Origin: a virus
Lineage: Duplodnaviria; Heunggongvirae; Uroviricota; Caudoviricetes
Virus record (IMG/VR): IMGVR_UViG_2671180864_000013
DNA length: 10,024 nucleotides
Direction: 5' to 3' (one strand)
The notes under the pieces: generated by a model
Told to the model about the DNA's origin: nothing
What the model saw: only the letters and a program-made list of their open reading frames with translations
Database searches by the model: none
Position numbers and translations under genes: made by a program
Part shown: positions 1-10,024 of the stretch, piece by piece
How the letters are laid out: each line of letters begins with the position of its first letter
Numbering within the stretch: the stretch's first letter is position 1

Positions 1-173
1 TGTCAGTTATCATCTTCGGTTACGGTTATCGGCAGAACGCCCTGCCGCTGACAAGAGCTTATTTGCCTGACCAATCTACTCCACATGATAGATAACTATC
101 ATTTATAGCATTTGGCTTATTAGCCTTTATTTTTCATTGAGTTGCAAACAATAAGCTCGTCAAAAACAGTAAA

Positions 174-639: not shown

Positions 640-921
640 TTACCGCCGTAAGTGCTCCGGCTTCCTCCACTGGTAAGTATTTTTCGCGCTCTCCCTCCGT
701 TGTTGAGAACGGCGACGGTATGCCAGCAACTCAAGAACTCTGGTTCGTATGTTGCGCATATCCACGCCGTTAAGCTCAATACCGTCACGGCGCATTACCT
801 CATCCACCACACGCGCATAATTTTCAGCGGTCACGCTGTCCGGTTGCATGGCCTGTTCGTCAACCTGCTGGCTGATTCCGGCGACGCGGCGGATTAATCC
901 CAGTATTTCGGCTTCTGTCAT
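640..921 (-). CDS. Hypothetical protein (93 aa), function unknown
   Basis: ATG at 919-921 preceded by a G-rich stretch. The N-terminal ~70 aa look protein-like; the Arg-rich C-terminal tail runs into the hairpin region and may be read-through or a remnant. Confidence 0.35.
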   Translation of the reverse strand: MTEAEILGLIRRVAGISQQVDEQAMQPDSVTAENYARVVDEVMRRDGIELNGVDMRNIRTRVLELLAYRRRSQQRRESAKNTYQWRKPEHLRR

Positions 922-1100
922 TGTGCCCCCATCGCGCTGGTTAAGAAAACAAGCTCAGATTTTTTGTAAAGAATCTGTCACGCTAAAAGATGTCGAACAA
1001 AAATTAACCACAATCATCATCTTTTTTGCATCAACCACATTAAAAACAACAGGTTACACACATGATGATGATGACGATAAAACCACAAAAATGCGTTTTT

Positions 1101-1180
1101 TTCCGCGCCGACCCGCCCCGTGGACAGGCCCCCCCCACCAGGAGGACCCGCAAAAAAGGCGGCTGCTGCCGCCTTGTTCT
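1101..1180. repeat. Copy A of an ~80-bp repeat (C-rich core 1112-1144 plus terminator hairpin)
   Basis: Aligns in register with 3631-3710; the 33-bp core cccgccccgtggacaggccNcccccaccaggag matches 32/33. Confidence 0.7.
1151..1175 (-). terminator. Intrinsic terminator ending the capsid operon
   Basis: Minus-strand RNA reads AAGGCGGC-AGCA-GCCGCCUU followed by UUUUG, starting a few bases after the capsid stop at 1180. Confidence 0.6.
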
Positions 1181-3060
1181 CATGAAGAAATCGCTCTGAC
1201 CATTCCGCGATAATCCAGAGCAGCAACGCCAGCATCAATGCGGACCTTCCAGGCCACACCGTCAACAATAAAGCCCTCCTGCTGCTCAAGGTAAGGCTCG
1301 TCATTACCGTCAAGATAAGCCACCTCAATTGTGTCCGTTCCCTGTGCTGAAAGCATGTACCATTGCTTATCACTGACTTCATCAAGGCGGGGATCGACAA
1401 TAATATCCAGTTGTTTGTGGTACGGGTTATATGAACCACTGTTTGTATCGGCACCGAAAGGCGTGGTTGAGTTAACCATTTGCAACGCTCTGTCTTCCAG
1501 AGCCGCAGGAACAAGAAGGAATTTTGGCACAATATTCAGCACCTCACCGTTTTCATCCCTCTGTGTGCGCATTGCACGGCGTGCAATGCCAAGCCCTGTA
1601 GTGCTGACTCCGTTATCAATATCATTTCCGTGTTTTTTGCTGAACAGCGGTATACCGTCAGAAAGCTTTGTGTTTCCTGTCAGCACCAGATGAACCAGAT
1701 TACCCACCGTTCTGGCGGCTGCTCGCCCCATTGCCTGTGGGATAACTGTTAACTGATTCAGGTCATCGTTAATAATCGCCTGTCGGGTAATGCTGAAAAT
1801 ATTTCCGTAAGTTGCCAGCGCGATTGGTTCGCCACGGTCACTGGTGGTGATGTATTTATATTCCGCGCCTTCCGGCACTTTGTTTAATGTAGAGAAGCCA
1901 TTCAGGCCAACACGACGTGCCTCATGGAAGTTTGACAATGAACCTTTTTTCGTCCACTGGCGGAACGTTTCGCCGCTGTGTTCCCATCCGGCAAGCACGG
2001 ATTTTTCAGCACCACCAGCAAGGATATAAGTAAAATCGCTGCTGCTGTGGGTGAATGCCGCGTTTACTATCTGCGAGCGTGTGCTGTAGCTGCCTGTGCT
2101 TATGCCGCGATGGGTTAATGATGCCTGTGCCATATCGAAAAGGCTCATCATGGCGTAAGGGTTGCCGCGTTCTGCCTGTTCATGTCCCAGACGCGCATTA
2201 AGCCCCTGACGCATTGCATCGCCGGTTATGTTGCCGTTATCCGTGTACGCGTAGTAAAGATTTGCGGGGGTGGTTTTGTTTGTCGGTGTCGATTCTTTAC
2301 CCATAGTGAGTAAAAGGCGTTCGCGTGCATCCTCAACGCTACAGCCTGAATCAGCAAGACAACTTATAGCCAGGTCGTTATATCTTCCATTGAACGTGCC
2401 AAACAATTCACGTATCCCGTTGAGTCGTTCCTGTTCTCCGCTGCCAGTTTTCTGGCTGATCATGCTTTTAATATTTTCCGGCATATTCGAAAAATCTCCG
2501 ATTCGTTTTGATTCAATTCTGGCCATTGCTGTAATCGCGGGTATAACCTCATCTGCGAAGCCATTAGCCTTACACTCATTGCCATCCATCCAGGTTTCCG
2601 CCTCCATCATGGCGGTGATTTCCTGTTTGCTCCTGCCCGTTCTTCCGGCGTAGGTTTCCGCCATCGTGTCGCCCAGCTTGTCCATCAGGTCAGCAAAGCG
2701 GCGAACGTCGCCCGACACTCCGGCAGTAACACCACGGGGGGCATGTATCATCATCATCGCGTTTTCAGGCATAACGATGTGATCGCCACACATGGCAATA
2801 AACGAGGCCATAGAAGCCGCCATGCCTTCAATGTGTACAATTTTCTTTGCCGGATGATTTTTCAGGGCGTTATAGATAGCCAGCCCTTCAAAGATGTCGC
2901 CACCAGGTGAATGGATGCGAAGATGGATTTCAGGCACATTACCGCACGCGTTGATCTCGTCAGTAAGTGCCGATGCTTTTACACCGTACCCGCCGATCTC
3001 GTCATAAATGCGTACATGTACAACATCAGCCATAGCCTTAATGGAAAACCATGTTTTCAT
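1180..3060 (-). CDS. Fused prohead protease (ClpP / S14-like) and HK97-fold major capsid protein, 626 aa
   Basis: N-terminal ~180 aa carry ClpP-like motifs (IHSPGGDIFEGLAIYNAL ... GMAASMASFIAMCGDHIVMPENAMMMIHAP). The C-terminal ~430 aa resemble HK97-type major capsid proteins. AGGAG RBS 8 nt upstream of the ATG at 3058-3060. Confidence 0.8.
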   Translation of the reverse strand: MKTWFSIKAMADVVHVRIYDEIGGYGVKASALTDEINACGNVPEIHLRIHSPGGDIFEGLAIYNALKNHPAKKIVHIEGMAASMASFIAMCGDHIVMPENAMMMIHAPRGVTAGVSGDVRRFADLMDKLGDTMAETYAGRTGRSKQEITAMMEAETWMDGNECKANGFADEVIPAITAMARIESKRIGDFSNMPENIKSMISQKTGSGEQERLNGIRELFGTFNGRYNDLAISCLADSGCSVEDARERLLLTMGKESTPTNKTTPANLYYAYTDNGNITGDAMRQGLNARLGHEQAERGNPYAMMSLFDMAQASLTHRGISTGSYSTRSQIVNAAFTHSSSDFTYILAGGAEKSVLAGWEHSGETFRQWTKKGSLSNFHEARRVGLNGFSTLNKVPEGAEYKYITTSDRGEPIALATYGNIFSITRQAIINDDLNQLTVIPQAMGRAAARTVGNLVHLVLTGNTKLSDGIPLFSKKHGNDIDNGVSTTGLGIARRAMRTQRDENGEVLNIVPKFLLVPAALEDRALQMVNSTTPFGADTNSGSYNPYHKQLDIIVDPRLDEVSDKQWYMLSAQGTDTIEVAYLDGNDEPYLEQQEGFIVDGVAWKVRIDAGVAALDYRGMVRAISS

Positions 3061-3251
3061 AGCCAGGCTCCTAACGTTGCCCTGTACCAGTATTCAACCG
3101 CGCTTCTCGCAATCTGCCCTTTCGTGGGTACTGGCATTCCAGGGTGATGACTTTTAATGAACTGCTGATAGCGTTCGAGCTTCTCCATAGTTCCGGCGTC
3201 TATGTGCACTGTTGCACTTTTATCCGGTTTTCTGCTGTTGTTCTCTGGCAT
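3057..3251 (-). CDS. Small protein (64 aa), possible ribbon-helix-helix-like, translationally coupled to the capsid gene
   Basis: Start taken at the Met with a GGAGG RBS 7 nt upstream (ATG at 3249-3251); the track ORF extends to 3284 without an RBS. ATGA overlap with the capsid start. The beta-strand/helix pattern (ATVHIDAGTMEKLERY) is weakly RHH-like. Confidence 0.5.
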   Translation of the reverse strand: MPENNSRKPDKSATVHIDAGTMEKLERYQQFIKSHHPGMPVPTKGQIARSAVEYWYRATLGAWL

Positions 3252-3324
3252 AAGTCTGCCTCCGTTATGATTAACGGGCATCATTATTGATCGATAAAAC
3301 TGGTAAATAAATCATTTTCTATCT

Positions 3325-3354
3325 AAAAATCAGATTATGTGTTTTCTGATTTTT
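3325..3354. promoter_or_regulatory. Perfect 10-bp inverted repeat AAAAATCAGA-N10-TCTGATTTTT upstream of the capsid operon
   Basis: Read directly; lies 70-100 bp upstream of the 64-aa ORF start. Candidate operator or leader hairpin. Confidence 0.35.
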
Positions 3355-3447
3355 GTCATACCAGCAAAAGAATTGACTAATTATTGCCACGCCAGCACAA
3401 TTAAGACTCATCATTTCGGTAGTGGCAGTATCCTTTGTCGCTGACAA

Positions 3448-3497
3448 AGCGCCTCCGGTGGCACCATCGGGGCGCTTTTTTTTGCGCCTGTTTTTTG
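3448..3497 (+). terminator. Plus-strand intrinsic terminator-like structure with two alternative hairpins, each followed by a T-run
   Basis: AGCGCC(3448-3453)...GGCGCT(3471-3476) followed by T7, then GGCGC / GCGCC(3484-3488) followed by T6. No plus-strand CDS lies upstream. Confidence 0.4.
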
Positions 3498-3630
3498 TAA
3501 ATGCTTTCGGGAACGTTCCGGCGTCGAACAAAAAACAACCTAATTCGACACTAAAAATTTTTATTTTGCCATATATCAATAACTTAAACTGGTGGTGATG
3601 GTGACATAAAAATCAAAAAATACGCCTTTT

Positions 3631-3710
3631 TCCGCGAACCGCCCGCCCCGTGGACAGGCCACCCCCACCAGGAGTACCTACAAAAAAGCCGGATTGCTCC
3701 GGCTTCTGTC
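3631..3710. repeat. Copy B of the ~80-bp repeat (core 3642-3674 plus terminator hairpin)
   Basis: See copy A; about 80% identity over 80 bp, with a near-identical 33-bp core. Confidence 0.7.
3681..3705 (-). terminator. Intrinsic terminator ending the SSB operon
   Basis: Minus-strand RNA reads AAGCCGGA-GCAA-UCCGGCUU followed by UUUUG, about 15 nt after the SSB stop. Confidence 0.65.
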
Positions 3711-3719
3711 ACTCGTTGC

Positions 3720-4142
3720 TTAAAACGGTATGTTATCCCCGTACGGATCATCATTCCCCGCCTGTTGTTTGGCCCTGTTCAGTGCATCAGTGGCCTGCCC
3801 CTGTTGGCCTTTTTTACCGCCCGGTCGCGCCGTTCTGGCACTGATTACACTGTCTGCGATAACCTGCCAGCCCTGCCGCGTTTCTCCGTTCTGGCCTGTC
3901 CACTGGCTTACCTGCATGTTACCCGCCACGCTCACCAGCTCGCCTTTCTGGTGCTTTGCCAGTGCGTCAGCCTGTCTGCCAAACGCCAGGACGGATAACC
4001 ATATCGTCGCCGTTCCGTCATCTGCCTGGCTGCACGGCAGGGGAACCGCCATACTCGCCATCGTCATTTGCGTACCCTTGCTGGTGGTCTTTAACTGCGG
4101 GTCAGCCACCAGCCGCCCGTAAGCCGCTATCTGTGCTGTCAT
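3720..4142 (-). CDS. ssb: Single-stranded DNA-binding protein (SSB), 140 aa
   Basis: OB-fold region parallels E. coli SSB by eye (GRLVADPQL ... WLSVLAFGRQADALAKHQKGELVSVAGNMQVSQWTGQNGETRQGWQV), with a Gly/Gln-rich linker and an acidic C-terminal tail ending DDPYGDNIPF (compare DDDIPF). Confidence 0.8.
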   Translation of the reverse strand: MTAQIAAYGRLVADPQLKTTSKGTQMTMASMAVPLPCSQADDGTATIWLSVLAFGRQADALAKHQKGELVSVAGNMQVSQWTGQNGETRQGWQVIADSVISARTARPGGKKGQQGQATDALNRAKQQAGNDDPYGDNIPF

Positions 4143-4384
4143 GCTGTCTGCTCTCCGGTTTTAACGTTGATGGTTGTCACCTGTTCCGCTTCGGCAATCT
4201 CCCGTTCTGTCAGCGTGGCAAAGTTTGCCGCCGTCGTGGTCATGAATGCGCTTATCAGTTCGGGATGTGCTTTCGCGTATCCTTCCCCGGCGTTGCGGTC
4301 GATGATTTTTATCGCCACCCTCAGCCAGTGTTCTGTCAAATCAAGGGCGTGAGATTGTGGTTTTTTGGCGTGCTTCGTTGTCAC
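4139..4384 (-). CDS. Hypothetical protein (81 aa), translationally coupled to ssb
   Basis: GTG start at 4382-4384 with a GAGGT RBS 7 nt upstream; ATGA overlap with the ssb start. No recognisable motif. Confidence 0.5.
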   Translation of the reverse strand: MTTKHAKKPQSHALDLTEHWLRVAIKIIDRNAGEGYAKAHPELISAFMTTTAANFATLTEREIAEAEQVTTINVKTGEQTA

Positions 4385-4429: not shown

Positions 4430-4657
4430 CTTCACCTGTTCACCTTTTGCAATTTTCCCTTTTTATTCATGATGTTAATGGGTTAACAGTTTCACAAAAA
4501 CTATTCACCAACTGTTCACCACTGTTCACCCTTAAAGCTCAATAAAGAATCAAAAAGGTGAACAGTGAATAGTTTGGTGAACAGTTCATAAATAACTGTT
4601 CACCCTATAATATACTGATATAAAAGACATTTATTGCAGGGTGAACAGTGGTGAACA
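4430..4657. repeat. Replication origin candidate: eight perfect TGTTCACC / GGTGAACA octamers plus variants, with AT-rich tracts
   Basis: Forward TGTTCACC at 4437, 4513, 4523, 4597; reverse GGTGAACA at 4557, 4576, 4640, 4650; variants at 4430-4436 and 4502-4509. Two tandem pairs have 10-bp spacing. Sits immediately 3' of the primase gene. Confidence 0.7.
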
Positions 4658-4698
4658 GTTATTCCATAAGTTTAATTTTTTCCATCGTCATTTGTGAC

Positions 4699-6489
4699 CT
4701 ATGCACATGATGGCATCCAGTCTTCTGAATCCTCTGTCAGGGTCACATTTGAACGCAAACCGTGCTTCGTTTTCCGTTTCATATACTCCCTGCCATATTC
4801 CGCCATTGCCCCCGGCATATCTTTACCGAAGCGCGTCAGTGTTACAGGTTTACCGAATCCGTGTGCCCTCATATATGCCAGATAGGCGTGATAAAGATAC
4901 CTGCGCGGACTGAACGGAATAATTTCGGCATTACCCACTAACAGACCATCACACATTACCGACGACATGAGATAGCCGCAGAAGTCCACCAGCGAATCGC
5001 CCTCGCGTTTTATCACCAGAGCTTCTTCTGATTTCTGCTGCTCATACAGCAGGCGTTTAGCTTCGTCCTGGTCAGAAAAACGAGTAAGCAGGTGGCGAAT
5101 CACAACCGCCAGCTCTCCTTCTATTTTTTCTGCCAGCATGGGGTCGCGTTCGTTCTCCGGTACAACTTCCGAAAAATTGAATATCACCCGACGACGTGAG
5201 ATCCCCCCGCTGCGGTCACTGAATGACATGGCGTTATTGTTAACCGCCAGCACTACTGCCGGAATACGCGTTGAGTAGGGGGCTTTGTGTTTCGGGTCAA
5301 TTGCCACCTTGTCACCGCCTGTAATGGCCTTAATCCCTGCCCCATCACCAGCGTAGCGGGTCATATCCGGCATGATAATCAGCGAAAAGCCAACCACTAA
5401 CGCGCGTTCCCTTGCATCTTCCAGCGCCTTCATGCTTGCCGATACTGTGTTGGCCTTACCCGCCAGCATGGTGCAAATCTCCGCCATCACGCTTTTACCA
5501 CTTCCCCCTGGACCTGTTACCTCAATGAATAACTGCCAGTCGTACCGGTTCGCCAGCACCATGAATAATACAGCCAGTACGCGATCCGCCTTGCGGTCAT
5601 TCTCAGCCACCGAACGGCGTAACCACTTCCAGAAATTCGGCGCATGTGTTGCCAGCGTTTCCCCCTCTGCTGGTGGGCTGAAAGGTAATTCACTGGCAAT
5701 TAACAACCAGTCGTTTTTGTTATGCTCCCGAAAATTACCTGTTCTGGTATCAAATACCCCGTTACTGAATCCAATCAGGTTACGGGCTGTATTCCCCATT
5801 ACAGGCAAACTTAACTTCATGGTATCGACCGCCGATTTAATGGCGTTCTGCGAATAGCTGATCTCCGCATCAATGAAAATCTGTGCCATAGCTCGCTGTA
5901 ATTCTTTATCCTGTACTGGCTCCCATACAACGCCGTTGTAATGGTGAACAGTGTCAGAGTCAGCATGAATCGCCAGTTCACCGCCATAATGTGCCAGGAG
6001 AACTTCGCCGCGTTGACTTGCTCCCATCTGGTTAAGCGCCAGTGATGAAGCGTTATCGTCTTTTACCCGCTCTTTTTTCTTTACAGGCAGTTCAACTACC
6101 TTTTTCTTTTCCGCCTGCTCTGCCCGTTCACGTTCCAGATATTCGCGCCAGTTCTCCCGTTTCTGGCTGTGCATTCCTTCAGGGTAATAATCAGCATCCC
6201 TGACACCTGCCACTGCCAGTTTCTGCCCGATGGTATTAACAAGCCCCGGACGCAATAACCCCGCCTGATAGAGACGCACGCGATAGCGTCCGTCCGGTAC
6301 GATTTGCAGGTTGTCCAGTTCGGCAAGTTGTTGCTCTCCAAGCCAGACAGGTGGCACGTTATCGCCAGCCAGTCGCCCGTCCTGTTCCTGCCACTGTTTC
6401 GCATGTGCCCACGCATCACTACCCGCAAAAATGATGACTTCCGTCATTTTGTCACGCGGCTGGTGTTTTAAATTTGGCGCTTTTTTCAT
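4699..6489 (-). CDS. Replication protein: primase / SF3 helicase (P4 alpha-like, D5-type NTPase), 596 aa
   Basis: Walker A motif GPGGSGKS inside a P4-family NTPase-like region. Start taken at the ATG at 6487-6489 (GGAGAG RBS; ATGA overlap with the upstream ORF stop) rather than the GTG at 6504. Iteron origin lies directly downstream. Confidence 0.85.
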   Translation of the reverse strand: MKKAPNLKHQPRDKMTEVIIFAGSDAWAHAKQWQEQDGRLAGDNVPPVWLGEQQLAELDNLQIVPDGRYRVRLYQAGLLRPGLVNTIGQKLAVAGVRDADYYPEGMHSQKRENWREYLERERAEQAEKKKVVELPVKKKERVKDDNASSLALNQMGASQRGEVLLAHYGGELAIHADSDTVHHYNGVVWEPVQDKELQRAMAQIFIDAEISYSQNAIKSAVDTMKLSLPVMGNTARNLIGFSNGVFDTRTGNFREHNKNDWLLIASELPFSPPAEGETLATHAPNFWKWLRRSVAENDRKADRVLAVLFMVLANRYDWQLFIEVTGPGGSGKSVMAEICTMLAGKANTVSASMKALEDARERALVVGFSLIIMPDMTRYAGDGAGIKAITGGDKVAIDPKHKAPYSTRIPAVVLAVNNNAMSFSDRSGGISRRRVIFNFSEVVPENERDPMLAEKIEGELAVVIRHLLTRFSDQDEAKRLLYEQQKSEEALVIKREGDSLVDFCGYLMSSVMCDGLLVGNAEIIPFSPRRYLYHAYLAYMRAHGFGKPVTLTRFGKDMPGAMAEYGREYMKRKTKHGLRSNVTLTEDSEDWMPSCA

Positions 6490-6785
6490 TTCTGCTCTCT
6501 CCACGCGGCAATCATGTTTTTTAGTTCCTGTAGTTTTTTATCAACATCCATACATGACACATGGTTATTTCTGGAAAGCGGGATTTCCCGACTGAATCTG
6601 CTAATAAAGATCTCCACGTTCAGCGAACTAAGAAATGAATAGCCATCACGGATAAAATACACACGGTCAAACATCAGTTCTTTTACCGTTACTCTGTTAC
6701 CGTTCTTATCCAGATAAATAGCGCCGGGGATAATTTGGGGGTGTGCATAACCGCTGGCAGTCAAGCCAGATAAATACGTTCTCAT
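6486..6785 (-). CDS. Hypothetical protein (99 aa), coupled to the primase gene
   Basis: ATG at 6783-6785; its TGA stop overlaps the primase ATG. No recognisable motif. Confidence 0.5.
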   Translation of the reverse strand: MRTYLSGLTASGYAHPQIIPGAIYLDKNGNRVTVKELMFDRVYFIRDGYSFLSSLNVEIFISRFSREIPLSRNNHVSCMDVDKKLQELKNMIAAWREQK

Positions 6786-6791
6786 GATTAT

Positions 6792-7112
6792 TTATCCCCG
6801 ATTTGAATCAGTATTCGCTTTCTTTATAGCATTTAATGCATCTGTGGCATTTTCAATGGTGCACCGTAACGAAATATCAAAATGTCCAAGCATTGCCAGT
6901 AACAAACCGATATTACCCATATCAATGCGCATGGCCTTTTCGTCATAGTCCTCATTTTCTGACGCATGCCACATCAGGCTACCAATTGACGCAACAGCCA
7001 TTGATATATTGTCAGTAGCCCCATCCGCAGCGGAATAAACCTTTTTAGCAATATCATGCTCACAGTTAAAATGCGGATTAATCAGGTACTGGTAATTTGA
7101 CATATCAGGCAT
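6792..7112 (-). CDS. Hypothetical acidic protein (106 aa)
   Basis: ATG at 7110-7112 preceded by a G-run; overlaps the upstream ORF stop by 8 nt. Asp/Glu-rich. Confidence 0.5.
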   Translation of the reverse strand: MPDMSNYQYLINPHFNCEHDIAKKVYSAADGATDNISMAVASIGSLMWHASENEDYDEKAMRIDMGNIGLLLAMLGHFDISLRCTIENATDALNAIKKANTDSNRG

Positions 7113-7308
7113 GGCACCCCCCCTGACGAATACGGGCGGCGAATACCATCACGCAGCCAGCCGGGGATTGCTGGCGTGCTTCCTGTTCGCTGCTGGCCTC
7201 AATGGTAATCACGCGCGGTTGTGCCGTGCTCAGGGCGATAAAACGCCAGATGTATTTATTCAGGTTGTACGAGTCCCGCCCTTGCGGGTGTATGGTATGA
7301 TTTCTCAT
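7105..7308 (-). CDS. Hypothetical small protein (67 aa), first gene of the leftward operon
   Basis: Start taken at the internal ATG (7306-7308) with a GAGG RBS. The track ORF begins at a TTG at 7398, only 9 bp from the operator palindrome and without a clean RBS, so that extension is less likely. Confidence 0.4.
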   Translation of the reverse strand: MRNHTIHPQGRDSYNLNKYIWRFIALSTAQPRVITIEASSEQEARQQSPAGCVMVFAARIRQGGCHA

Positions 7309-7406
7309 AGCTGCCTCGATACTCTCGTTATCGTTGGTGGTTAGACGCCCCGTATGTGTTTCCGGCACTGCGGGGCGTTGCTCTTTGTATTTCAACAATC
7401 CTTTCG

Positions 7407-7484
7407 GTGTGTTTCATGTTATGAGCGCATGAAACACACGTCAAGGCTTTTTGTATTTCTTTTTTTGTGTATACTGAAACACAC
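7407..7484. promoter_or_regulatory. Divergent promoter/operator switch
   Basis: 12-bp inverted repeat GTGTGTTTCATG (7407-7418) / CATGAAACACAC (7428-7439) with a 9-bp spacer, plus a third GAAACACAC half-site (7476-7484). Leftward sigma70-like promoter TTGACG (7444-7439)-N17-TAACAT (7421-7416) is overlapped by the palindrome. Rightward -10 TATACT (7470-7475) abuts the third half-site. Confidence 0.55.
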
Positions 7485-7505
7485 CGATGATTAGGAGTTT
7501 CAGAA

Positions 7506-7811
7506 ATGGCAACGGCTAACAAAAACGCAAAATCACAACTGACAACTGTCAGAGTCCCACTAGATGTTATGCAAGGGATGGAATCCGTTAAGCTGGACGG
7601 CGAAAGCAATGCCGGATTTATCGTAACCGCCATGCGCGGAGAAATAGCCCGCCGCCAAGCAGAAGGCAGCGGAGAAAATCCCCTTGTGTCGTCACTGGAT
7701 GCCCTGGCTAAGGTCGAACAAATCGGCATCAAAGCAGCGGAAGAAATCGGGCAGCTTGTCACCGTTGCACGCGAAGAACTCCAGCGTCGCAAGACCAAAG
7801 AACCAGAGTAA
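7506..7811 (+). CDS. Putative ribbon-helix-helix (CopG/Arc-like) DNA-binding regulator, 101 aa
   Basis: AGGAG RBS (7493-7497) 8 nt before the ATG. N-terminus fits the RHH pattern (TTVRVPLDVMQGMESVKLDGESNAGFIVTAM). Codon usage looks coding; the opposite-strand 272-aa ORF looks like an antisense artefact. Confidence 0.55.
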   Translation: MATANKNAKSQLTTVRVPLDVMQGMESVKLDGESNAGFIVTAMRGEIARRQAEGSGENPLVSSLDALAKVEQIGIKAAEEIGQLVTVAREELQRRKTKEPE

Positions 7812-7868
7812 TCACCATCAGCGCCGTGGTGTAAGGTATTACGGCGCATTGCTATGCAGGACAACACA

Positions 7869-8042
7869 ATGACCGATAAAGAATTGACCAAAACATTATC
7901 ACCGGCACGGAAAAGACGGCGCAGAAAGATAGAGCATGAATCAGAAAGATTCGCGCCATGTGCTTTTGCTCTTGAGAAATTCCTTAAAGAGCACAGGAAA
8001 AAGCTCTCGTTGCAAACCTTGGAACGAACAAAATCTGACTGA
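7869..8042 (+). CDS. Hypothetical small basic protein (57 aa)
   Basis: ATG at 7869 with AGGA 7 nt upstream (the track ORF starts at 7854). Lys/Arg-rich (RKRRRRK). Followed by a plus-strand terminator. Confidence 0.3.
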   Translation: MTDKELTKTLSPARKRRRRKIEHESERFAPCAFALEKFLKEHRKKLSLQTLERTKSD

Positions 8043-8109
8043 TCACATTGCCCACCAGCCGCAAATGTGGCATTGTTGGTGATGCGTTCAAGTTTAGTGT
8101 GTATCCATT

Positions 8110-8137
8110 GGCGACCGCCCCCGGTCGTCTTTGTTTT
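8110..8137 (+). terminator. Intrinsic terminator of the plus-strand unit, convergent with alpA
   Basis: Stem 8110-8116 / 8123-8129 (GC-rich, one G-U wobble), 6-nt loop, then TTTGTTTT (8130-8137). Confidence 0.5.
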
Positions 8138-8156
8138 ATATGTCATATGCTCCCCT

Positions 8157-8366
8157 TTACGCTGCCTTACCTGAATTAATGCGATCCCGGCTTTTAACCC
8201 ATTCCATAACCTCGGACAGCAGCCAACCTACAGAACGCCCACCAAGATTACGGCGAGACGGAAAGCTCCCTTTTTTCTCCAGTTCGTAGCGTGTAGTGCG
8301 ACACACTCCAGTTAACTTACGACATTCATCCTCACGGATTACGCGATCTTCATTTATTTCACGCAT
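8157..8366 (-). CDS. alpA: AlpA-family (prophage CP4-57 regulatory protein-like) transcriptional regulator, 69 aa
   Basis: The segment RVIREDECRKLTGVCRTTRYELEKKGSFPSRRNLGGRSVGWLLSEVMEWVKSR parallels E. coli AlpA by eye. Start uncertain: ATG at 8364-8366 gives typical AlpA length but has no RBS; the GTG at 8451-8453 has an AAGAGG directly upstream and gives 98 aa. Confidence 0.75.
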   Translation of the reverse strand: MREINEDRVIREDECRKLTGVCRTTRYELEKKGSFPSRRNLGGRSVGWLLSEVMEWVKSRDRINSGKAA

Positions 8367-8785
8367 ACAAAAACCTACATAAAAATTACGTATATAAACT
8401 TTTCTCTTAGCTGTAGATATATGAGATCGGATATTACTTAGATTCTTTTTCACCTCTTAAATTAAAAACACAACCATACTAAAGGCTTTGTTCGCTAAGG
8501 TTCGTAGAAGCTCGTTAGTGTTTAAAATCGTGTCACGAGTTTTTAAGCGACGCAACAAAAAATGTCGTCATTTGGCATGTCACCTGAATTACCTCATTAA
8601 AAACAAATAGATAAACCATCAGGTGTTGGAACAATCAAGAAACAGAGAATAAGAACTCAGAAGAAGACATTTCAATTTTTTTCGATAGTTGACACATATA
8701 AAGAGAAGATATTTGCAGATATTCCCCGATATTCTAAGATCTATTCACGGCTGTAATCTCTTAAAGAAAAAACAGCCGTAATTTG

Positions 8786-10024
8786 TCAAGAATTTTGGGG
8801 GTAAATTCGCGGGGTCATAACAACGATTTTTTCATCATTGTTCTGGAGAAGCTCGAGACGGTCTACCCATAGATTAAGAGCGTCACGCTTTGCATCGAGA
8901 TAACGGGAGTGGTTATAGACGCGTTGCATTCCTGGCATCTGGTGGGCAGTAAGCTGTTCGACAATATGCGGATCCACGCCTAAATCGTTCAGCATGGTTG
9001 TAAATGTGTGCCGGATGTCGTGCAACGACCAGGGGGTTTGATTAATGCGTCTGTGTGCCGTTCTTCCGTACTCTGCTACGGATGATTGCCCTTTCAGTTC
9101 TCCAAGCAATAAGCCCGTGTGCCTGTTCTGCTCCACCAGCTTCATGACGAACGGCAAGATCGCTTCCGGTATTGGCCTGAATATTGCTACCTTCGTTTTG
9201 CTGTGTTCTTTCGGCACAGTCCAGAGCATTTCTTTAAAATCCCATTCCCGAACCTCGGAGCGTCTTAGCTCAGTGGTACGGCATCCGAAGACAATCAGAA
9301 GGCGAATTAAAGCGCTGTAGTACGGCGGGAAAATTTTTTCATCCAGTGCGCGGAGTAGCTCGCCAAGCTCCTTGTTTGTTAGCACTCGCTCGCTTATTTC
9401 TGCTTTTTTTCCCACATCACCTACGACCATATCATCAAGAACGTTACTGACGGCGTAGCGACGTTTACGGCAGTACTTAAGCGCCTGTTTGCATACCTGC
9501 AACAAAAAGCCGGCTGATACCGGATTACGCTTAGCAAGCTGGTCAAAACAGGCCAGCCAGTGGCGTAGCTCGCATTTATCCAGCGGCATAGCACCAATCT
9601 GGCTGATTATGTGCTTATTGATACGGCTTTTCAGTGATTCGTGGTCAGTGCGCTTTTCCTTCGCATACGACTCAAGCCAGTAAGTGAGCGCGTCCTTAAC
9701 CGTCACAGGGGCTAACGCTTCCTGCACTGTGTGATTAAGCTCATGGCGTGGATTTTTCCCCTCCGCCAGCCAGGCGCGACACTGTGCCGCTTTTTCCCTG
9801 GCTGCTTTCAGGCTCAGATCGGGATAGTTGCCCAGTCTCAGGCGTTCCGGTGATACCTGCCTGCCAGTTCCGGCCCTGTAAGTGAAATACCAGGTTAACA
9901 GGCCGCTGGTGGAATGTCTTACGCTAAGATTGCCACCGTCATTAAAAAAGGCGTTTTTTGTGGTTGGTGATCCGCTTAATTTTCGTAAAAGAGTGTCGCT
10001 AAGTCTATGAATTGCGCTGCTCAT
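8786..10024 (-). CDS. int: Tyrosine recombinase / integrase, P4-like, 412 aa
   Basis: N-terminal arm-binding-like region (FNDGGNLSVRH ... WYFTYR ... LGNYPDLSLKAAREKA) and C-terminal catalytic region with HDIRHT and downstream Tyr. The ATG is at the window edge, so a longer N-terminus cannot be excluded. Confidence 0.9.
   Translation of the reverse strand: MSSAIHRLSDTLLRKLSGSPTTKNAFFNDGGNLSVRHSTSGLLTWYFTYRAGTGRQVSPERLRLGNYPDLSLKAAREKAAQCRAWLAEGKNPRHELNHTVQEALAPVTVKDALTYWLESYAKEKRTDHESLKSRINKHIISQIGAMPLDKCELRHWLACFDQLAKRNPVSAGFLLQVCKQALKYCRKRRYAVSNVLDDMVVGDVGKKAEISERVLTNKELGELLRALDEKIFPPYYSALIRLLIVFGCRTTELRRSEVREWDFKEMLWTVPKEHSKTKVAIFRPIPEAILPFVMKLVEQNRHTGLLLGELKGQSSVAEYGRTAHRRINQTPWSLHDIRHTFTTMLNDLGVDPHIVEQLTAHQMPGMQRVYNHSRYLDAKRDALNLWVDRLELLQNNDEKIVVMTPRIYPQNS

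Follow-up and report, generated by a model that had tools for sequence, protein, structure and literature searches.

A phage-inducible chromosomal island of Escherichia coli that carries a fused prohead protease and major capsid gene between two cos-like sites resembling those of Shiga toxin-converting phages

The IMG/VR virus record IMGVR_UViG_2671180864_000013 is a stretch of 10,024 nucleotides (nt), referred to here, at its full length, as the window. Judged from its sequence, the window is a nearly complete, ~10-kb classical Gram-negative phage-inducible chromosomal island (PICI) of the EcCICFT073/EcCIIHE3034 lineage, resident in Escherichia coli. The element contains a head gene of three parts, in which a ClpP-like prohead protease, a putative scaffold, and a major capsid protein are joined in one polypeptide of 626 amino acids (aa), and this gene is coupled to a 64-aa open reading frame (ORF). 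Two direct cos (cohesive-end)-like sites, each positioned right after a terminator, flank the resulting capsid cassette. A PICI located at cspD-clpS that carries the coupled tripartite head gene and two cos-like sites of helper type, and whose fusion protein acts in the procapsid pathway of a helper phage, is the interpretation that, taken as a whole, is regarded here as likely. The capsid cassette and the features next to it are as follows.

3682-3706, minus strand: intrinsic terminator after the gene for the single-stranded-DNA-binding protein (SSB); 9-bp stem and U6, -15.8 kcal/mol, z = -3.8
3525-3685, minus strand: proximal cos-like site, CP-1639/1720a-02 type
3057-3251, minus strand: 64-aa ORF
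1180-3060, minus strand: fusion gene, 626 aa
2521-3060, minus strand: N-terminal part of the fusion, ClpP-like prohead protease, aa 1-180 (PF00574, E 7.9e-33)
2071-2520, minus strand: middle part of the fusion, linker and putative scaffold, aa 181-330, aligning with the middle of the phage tripartite genes
1180-2070, minus strand: C-terminal part of the fusion, major capsid protein (HK97-type, Mu gpT-like), aa 331-626 plus stop (PF25209, E 1.1e-54; PF10124, E 2.8e-10)
1152-1175, minus strand: intrinsic terminator after the fusion gene; 8-bp G+C-rich stem and U6, -15.7 kcal/mol, z = -2.2
986-1155, minus strand: distal cos-like site, Stx2_95/VT1-Sakai type, including the cosB-side spacer

A first-pass annotation, made from the sequence letters without database searches, had described the 626-aa ORF as a ClpP-like protease joined to a capsid protein, and this was borne out by Pfam, NCBIfam, PHROGs, and profile comparison with solved capsid proteins. 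With Pfam, CLP_protease matches aa 44-173 (E 7.9e-33) and Phage_capsid_4 matches aa 331-623 (E 1.1e-54, profile positions 7-262 of 262), accompanied by a weaker match to Mu-like_gpT. The NCBIfam family NF045540, named 'ClpP-like prohead protease/major capsid protein fusion protein', is matched over its full length with 863 bits (cut-off 475), with the protease N-terminal and the coat C-terminal in agreement with the Pfam order, while NF045542 ('head maturation protease, ClpP-related') matches the N-terminal 172 residues with 201 bits. In PHROGs the fusion falls into phrog_133 and phrog_4523 ('major head and protease protein'). When the protease part is set against solved ClpP structures, the Ser motif GMAASMAS (S83) and the His motif MMIHAP (H106) fall into register, and both residues are invariant in 15 homologues with identities down to 62%; the Ser and His predicted to be catalytic in a ClpP fold are kept in the satellite gene. 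The profile of the C-terminal 326 aa matches solved capsid proteins of the Mu gpT family (9jod_A and 8rkc_A, E ~2e-9), and the capsid domain is 57% identical to its helper-type homologue. The linker region carries the NCBIfam label 'scaf_prot_MCP1', and a scaffold role for this region is suggested by the precedent of Gifsy-2-type phages, which have fused prohead protease and coat genes. Comparison of satellite with helper copies revealed that a ~35-aa Pro/Ala-rich linker, present after the protease in every helper copy, is missing from all satellite copies (at ~2440-2470 of the window, residues ~198-208), and that further on the satellite copies have a 3-aa insertion (LYYAYTDNGN versus HI---YAGNGN in helper copies).

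The first-pass annotation had also taken the 64-aa ORF to be coupled to the fusion gene, and this could be confirmed: the TGA of the ORF overlaps the ATG of the fusion gene (ATGA), indicating translational coupling, and the ribosome-binding sequence AGGAG precedes the fusion ATG. A GGAGG is found 7 nt upstream of the start ATG of the 64-aa ORF; a longer, 75-aa reading of the same ORF (start at 3284) has no ribosome-binding site. The 64-aa product matches phrog_4934, and a search for homologues gave only 10, from E. coli, Klebsiella, and Salmonella. In four non-redundant Klebsiella-type loci, which stand for 12 of the 24 contigs read when collapsed similar places are counted, the ORF likewise lies immediately ahead of a 638-aa fusion gene. 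No Pfam family matched the 64-aa product, with only noise returned even at E values up to 10. Its AlphaFold2 (AF2) model has a mean predicted local distance difference test (pLDDT) score of 71.5 and consists of two helices that follow an unstructured N-terminus containing a conserved TVHID; a Foldseek search of the Protein Data Bank (PDB) with this model yielded nothing significant, the top match being the ribbon-helix-helix protein SegB (E 4.9, probability 0.12). These searches do not establish the ribbon-helix-helix fold that had been suggested as possible at first pass. BLASTP gave no alignment with the 68-aa ORF that occupies the corresponding position in EcCICFT073, and homology between the two is not claimed. 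At the other end of the cassette, the terminator after the fusion gene was missed by a simple terminator scan and confirmed by RNA folding, and in phage mEp460 a terminator is annotated in the corresponding position after the fusion gene. A terminator does follow the fusion, as had been stated at first pass, but the element does not end there: a cos-like site and a conserved 93-aa gene (640-921) lie beyond it. Candidate signals that have been named for expression of the cassette are read-through, or a helper or AlpA/PerC-type activator.

The cos-like sites were located through inspection of the sequence and blastn comparison with phages; matches to lambda cosN (GGGCGGCGACCT) with up to 3 mismatches were no commoner than chance. 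By blastn, the distal site (~986-1155) shares 92.6% identity with an intergenic stretch found in Stx2_95, VT1-Sakai, and related Shiga toxin (Stx)-converting phages. In Stx2_95, the matching stretch is flanked by the genes for the Rz endopeptidase and the small terminase (terS), and the interval between Rz and terS is the canonical position of cos in lambdoid phages. The alignment takes in a cosN-like core related to that of lambda and then continues for ~100 nt through the whole terS-proximal spacer. The proximal site (~3525-3685) is 89-90% identical over ~140 nt to the region between Rz and a DUF1441-type terS in CP-1639 and 1720a-02, yet only 81% identical to the Stx2_95 type, and its terS side differs from that of the distal copy. 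Both copies also bracket the capsid cassette in three other satellites (L001, L008, and L009), which derive from O111:H8, O157:H7, and a Swiss clinical isolate. Moreover, both subgroups of phages that resemble the cos-like sites carry a tripartite head gene, and these genes are the closest phage relatives of the fusion (51% identity by tblastn, 54% by alignment).

On the strength of these similarities, the helpers are probably Stx-type lambdoid phages of either subgroup. Neither a terS nor an rpp gene was found in the window. Given that both are missing and that the cos-like sites copy the cosB side of the helper, the helper terminase would be expected to recognise the island directly. The presence of two sites that match two helper types may also explain why some PICIs have two cos sites. 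YJ4-type relatives (L002), a sister lineage at the shared attachment (att) site, have a fusion allele that is 63% identical and lack the cos type of the window; in L002, a DUF1441 (TerS-family) gene at 8921-9406 follows the fusion and is possibly an Rpp-like adaptor for the helper group with DUF1441-type TerS.

The remainder of the element comprises the following features.

8786-10024, minus strand: tyrosine-type integrase (PF00589 and PF13356), adjoining yljB/cspD in relatives, where it is annotated as integrase
8157-8453, minus strand: AlpA-family regulator (PF05930, E 4.8e-16)
7506-7811, plus strand: divergent YlcI/YnfO gene
7105-7398, minus strand: Icd-like gene
6792-7112, minus strand: 106-aa ORF
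6486-6785, minus strand: DUF4222 gene
4699-6504, minus strand: primase-helicase gene (pri), D5_N/P4-family (PF08706, PF19263, PF03288; TIGR01613)
4436-4664: putative replication origin, a block of ~12 iterons immediately 3' of the primase gene
4139-4384, minus strand: 81-aa ORF
3720-4142, minus strand: SSB gene (PF00436, E 3.9e-16; TIGR00621)
640-921, minus strand: terminal 93-aa gene, conserved (phrog_1561)
92-102: att core ATGATAGTTAT, at the clpS-side end of the element

Every sequence-testable feature by which Gram-negative PICIs are recognised (Fillol-Salom 2018) is present. The PICI-specific att site is present and an integrase gene lies at one end of the element, with the second att copy known from relatives; alpA lies downstream of int and is co-oriented with most genes (PF05930, E 4.8e-16); the element has its own primase with a putative origin immediately 3' of it; its size is in the range of ~10-20 kb, and it is devoid of lytic and of most structural phage genes, with the fusion as the sole structural gene; and hijacking of helper packaging is indicated, by homology, by the two cos-like sites. 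All real genes except the divergent YlcI/YnfO gene are carried by the minus strand, and the order int-alpA-(YlcI/Icd)-DUF4222-primase-ori-SSB-capsid is the layout of EcCICFT073 as read from the CFT073 genome. Among the window ORFs of useful size, no match to terminase, portal, connector, tail, or lysis families was found in Pfam, NCBIfam, or PHROGs, in keeping with the initial impression that the window has neither terminase nor portal. The putative origin consists of ~12 copies of a 10-mer (GGTGAACAGT / ACTGTTCACC) in both orientations at 4436-4664, and PICI origins have been described as lying immediately 3' of the primase gene. The 93-aa gene, which has no Pfam family, shares 75% identity with the final gene in EcCICFT073, and it is located beyond the last cos site at the far end of EcCICFT073, EcCIIHE3034, and the element in the window. 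Four further ORFs (272, 171, 161, and 151 aa) were treated as spurious, given that they have no Pfam family and overlap real genes; the 272-aa ORF (7328-8146, minus strand) overlaps the YlcI/YnfO gene on the opposite strand, relatives are annotated with BRO-N pseudogene fragments there, and it is probably no gene. A search of the window with Rfam returned nothing at gathering thresholds.

The chromosomal position of the element could be established from the att core and from relatives. The core ATGATAGTTAT is present once in the window (92-102) and is an exact match to the published core of EcCIIHE3034 and EcCI18098, both of which are integrated at cspD-clpS (Fillol-Salom 2018, Table S1). In three relatives (L001, L002, and L007) it is found on both flanks of the element, and the length between the att copies, as measured in relatives, is ~10.1 kb. 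The closest complete E. coli genomes carry a corresponding unit between clpS and yljB/cspD that is 92-96% identical, with the best relatives' matches spanning 79-95% of the window; in the closest relatives, clpS ends exactly at the start of the window, and yljB/cspD follows the integrase. It had been proposed at first pass that terminase, portal, and connector genes be sought beyond position 1; what is found there in relatives is clpS, a host core gene. The presence of host core genes beyond that position indicates that the element is not the head module of a prophage, and the earlier view of it as a satellite is upheld by the PICI layout, the att site, and the flanking host genes.

The fusion gene has the properties of a functional gene. 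Between satellite copies, each of the three domains shows a dN/dS of ~0.13 (0.10-0.16), and dS reaches 0.78 in the coat domain; values for helper copies are similar (0.16-0.18), and the reading frame is intact in all copies examined. These values are those of a working gene under purifying selection. Satellite and helper-type fusions are 52-54% identical. Compared with the satellite copies of O111/O157 (L001 9367-11256), the fusion of the window is a mosaic, with a protease that is 98% identical (dS 0.04) and a coat that is 86% identical (dS 0.78), a contrast that points to recombination inside the fusion gene. Of 5426 complete E. coli genomes, 143 contain 80% or more of the cassette, and many of these 143 are Shiga toxin-producing E. 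coli (STEC); the helper-type fusion gene is found in 2016 of the same 5426 genomes as well as in many phages. PICI backbones with the cassette occupy four kinds of integration site: cspD-clpS, tqsA (the site of EcCI042), the large terminase gene (terL) of a lambdoid prophage, and the interior of a helper fusion gene. These data bear on the idea that the fusion is a relic of a lambdoid prophage, decayed or incomplete, to whose head module it would have belonged. The wide occurrence of the fusion family as a normal head gene of lambdoid phages and prophages is what would be expected under that idea. However, the element is a discrete 10-kb unit with att repeats between host core genes, its other genes are those of a PICI and not early or late genes of a phage, the cassette recurs in PICIs at the four integration sites, and a dN/dS of 0.13 together with the intact frame in all copies examined argues against decay. 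An origin as a prophage remnant is therefore considered highly improbable.

Relatives that reside within helper prophages provide an additional view of the cassette. In E. coli O157:H7 NE122 (L008), a satellite at 8436-18323 with a 92%-identical fusion is located inside the terL of a lambdoid prophage; the head module of this host prophage has the order DUF1441 (TerS)-terL-portal-fusion-cement. In Klebsiella-type contigs (L010-L013), satellites at ~1600-14400 that carry the 64-aa ORF and a 638-aa fusion lie inside the ClpP/coat fusion gene of the helper, and the insertion splits the latter into fragments of 195 aa (N-terminal) and 551 aa (C-terminal). The accessory genes of the Klebsiella-type satellites include DUF4145, DUF2971, and a 449-aa ORF beside a HicB-like gene. 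Helper-embedded PICIs (HE-PICIs) have been described by the Williams laboratory (PMC10111431), and one of the site classes in the supplement of that study is C_CLP_protease_110, whose att sequence, ATGATGATCCAT, encodes the MMIH motif of the protease. The insertions in terL and in the helper fusion gene correspond to site classes A_Terminase and C_CLP_protease_110, respectively (PMC10111431). While a satellite is integrated in the helper fusion gene, its own fusion is, as read from the contigs, the only intact coat gene.

From the gene content and the cos homology we infer the following course of events. A helper of either cos subgroup would induce the island, which would excise by the action of Int and AlpA and would replicate via its own primase and iteron origin. 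The helper terminase, consisting of a DUF1441-type TerS and TerL, would recognise the satellite cos directly, without an Rpp-like adaptor, and the island DNA would then enter heads built on the helper portal, to which helper tails would be joined. In this process, the fusion would supply a coat subunit with its own scaffold and maturation protease and would enter the helper procapsid pathway, either co-assembling with or replacing helper subunits, and no head would be built by the fusion alone. In helper-embedded relatives, the fusion would stand in for the interrupted head or packaging gene of the helper. Participation in the helper procapsid pathway is most probably the role of the fusion, a judgement made because the island is without portal, decoration protein, and connectors. 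The first-pass suggestion that the satellite borrows other virion parts from a helper likewise gains support, by inference, from the two helper-type cos-like sites and the lack of a terminase, and the element would be expected to do so.

Two other roles for the fusion were weighed. First, the single tripartite gene might specify satellite-made, possibly smaller shells on helper portals that are filled from the satellite cos, which would place the element between classical PICIs and capsid-forming PICIs (cf-PICIs). This idea, which goes back to the first pass, is considered unlikely, and equally doubtful is its fuller form, in which shells determined by the satellite, perhaps with a lower triangulation (T) number suiting ~10 kb, would be assembled on helper portals from one polypeptide that unites coat, shortened scaffold, and protease, and in which the two cos-like sites would make this possible with two helper subgroups. 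Consistent with such a role, one polypeptide holds all shell-forming functions, the scaffold-like linker is ~35 aa shorter than in every helper copy, and purifying selection together with divergence to ~54% identity would fit a specialised shell; precedents are Ccm, with small capsids in cos-packaged Staphylococcus aureus pathogenicity islands (SaPIs), and PmCI172, with a coat homologue and small heads. Nevertheless, the element has no portal, connector, terminase, or decoration gene and falls short of the definition of a cf-PICI, and EcCICFT073, which has its own coat and decoration genes, kept phage-sized heads with the coat dispensable. Second, the fusion might be a weapon of interference, poisoning the procapsids of the helper as a dominant-negative subunit or through mistimed protease action and lowering helper yield. 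Classical PICIs generally interfere with their helpers, and a 54%-identical coat with a putatively active protease could plausibly co-assemble with and disturb helper shells. However, interference by EcCICFT073 was mapped to RppA and not to its coat or decoration genes, and a poison that also destroyed the heads on which the satellite depends would defeat its own purpose, unless a fraction of the particles escaped. Moreover, in helper-embedded relatives the satellite copy is the sole intact coat gene until excision, which argues for a constructive role. Interference as the function of the fusion is accordingly judged improbable.

Several points weigh against the preferred interpretation, that of a PICI at cspD-clpS with helper-type cos-like sites and a fusion that acts in the helper procapsid pathway. 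First, the second att copy falls outside the window, ~175 bp past its right end. Second, the cosN cores of the two sites differ from each other and slightly from those of the phages, such that their competence for cleavage is not assured. Third, the assignment of helpers follows solely from similarity in cos and in the head gene. Fourth, a scan of the minus strand upstream of the cassette (window 3284-3525) gave no sigma-70-like promoter. Fifth, the AF2 model of the whole fusion, for which the alignment comprised 15 sequences that are all at least 62% identical, has a mean pLDDT of 40.4 and is unusable for a fold search; because the model is this poor, the HK97 fold is assigned by profile homology and not by structure comparison. 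Finally, in EcCICFT073, the capsid gene c1499 (lambda gpE type) is dispensable for both transfer and interference, the decoration gene is likewise needed for neither, and the island is packaged at phage length in phage-sized heads. The dispensability of c1499 implies that the fusion, too, may have little effect in the laboratory. It is also a discouraging precedent, from a different capsid type, for the first-pass alternative that the fusion might serve to remodel helper capsids.

Among reference Gram-negative PICIs, most have a phage coat gene, and the only deletion tested had no phenotype. The element described here provides a comparative argument that the PICI coat gene matters, in that the cassette is swapped as a module to match the head type of the phages whose cos sites are copied in the island; further points in the same direction are purifying selection and the status of the fusion as the sole intact coat gene in integrated helper-embedded relatives. 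Two cos-like sites matching two helper subgroups suggest a wider helper range that does not depend on an Rpp adaptor. Since the likely helpers include Shiga toxin-converting phages of STEC, such islands could affect the yield of Stx phages and gene traffic in pathogenic E. coli. If the fusion did specify the capsid, the element would bridge the gap between classical PICIs, dependent on helper heads, and cf-PICIs, with complete heads of their own, and the capsid genes of most Gram-negative PICIs would be given a function. Current models are not overturned by these results; the outcome is a sharper and testable hypothesis on why coat genes and multiple cos sites are kept.

Among known satellites, EcCICFT073 shares with the window the genes int, alpA, divergent YlcI/YnfO, Icd-like, DUF4222, and primase, the ori, a small ORF, and SSB, followed by a small ORF and a capsid gene, cos sites, and a 93-aa last gene; both have two cos sites and no terminase. 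In EcCICFT073, however, the coat is a lambda gpE-type protein of 351 aa accompanied by a gpD-type decoration gene, and the two cos sites are mutually inverted, with a lambda-type cosN and a private cosB, and its adaptor RppA retargets the TerS of the helper. The window instead has a fused protease-scaffold-coat gene, no decoration gene or Rpp, and direct cos-like sites that copy the cosB side of the helper. EcCIIHE3034 and EcCI18098 share the att core, the chromosomal site, and the backbone of the element, whereas the late zone of EcCIIHE3034 consists of a lambda-type coat, a decoration gene, a homologue of Nu1-type TerS, and two lambda-type cosN. In EcCIIHE3034 (L007), three cos-like sites of two families were observed at 7029-7065, 9500-9515, and 10363-10378; one is of the Stx/CP-1639 type and follows the SSB gene, and the other two, around the Nu1-like gene, have lambda-type cosN. 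Relative to EcCIIHE3034, the capsid cassette of the window is swapped as a module.

The first-pass annotation had also raised the idea of a capsid-forming PICI, and this was not upheld. By definition, cf-PICIs encode capsid, protease, portal, head-tail connectors, HNH, TerS, and TerL, and take only tails from the helper. The element shares with cf-PICIs such as EcCIEDL933 the int-alpA-rep backbone, a coat protein, and a head maturation protease, the latter two in one fused gene; in contrast to them, it has no matches to portal, connectors, HNH, TerS, or TerL, and assignment to the cf-PICIs was rejected because only the coat and protease functions are present. A P4-like satellite was rejected as well, given that no matches to Sid, Psu, or Delta were found in Pfam, NCBIfam, or PHROGs and that the cos-like sites are lambdoid and not of P2 type. 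HE-PICIs have the cassette of 64-aa ORF and fusion in common with the element of the window; they interrupt helper genes, whereas the window element is chromosomal (clpS/cspD), would act in trans, and interrupts none. The tripartite head genes of phages resemble the satellite copy in belonging to the NF045540/phrog_133 family, in the order protease-linker-coat, and in the terminator after the gene; in phages the gene lies between the portal and cement protein genes of a full head-tail operon, whereas the satellite copy stands alone behind the 64-aa ORF.

Coat homologues are also known from satellites with other hosts and other arrangements. Ccm of SaPIbov5, a cos-packaged SaPI, is, like the fusion, a satellite homologue of a helper major capsid protein encoded on an island without terminase; it differs in being a coat homologue only, in belonging to Gram-positive hosts, and in making small capsids, whereas the fusion of the window adds protease and scaffold parts and is known from sequence alone. 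PmCI172, another island with a coat homologue, likewise has its DNA in small heads. Capsid genes are found in 21 of 29 reference Gram-negative PICIs. The reference tables consulted for E. coli PICIs list a lambda-type coat of 351 aa and a decoration protein of 111 aa, and the fusion is not among their entries, while the Prokaryotic Genome Annotation Pipeline (PGAP) already names the fusion gene in E. coli genomes. A chromosomal PICI with a tripartite head gene and two helper-matched cos-like sites is an addition to a known class of satellites and not a new kind.

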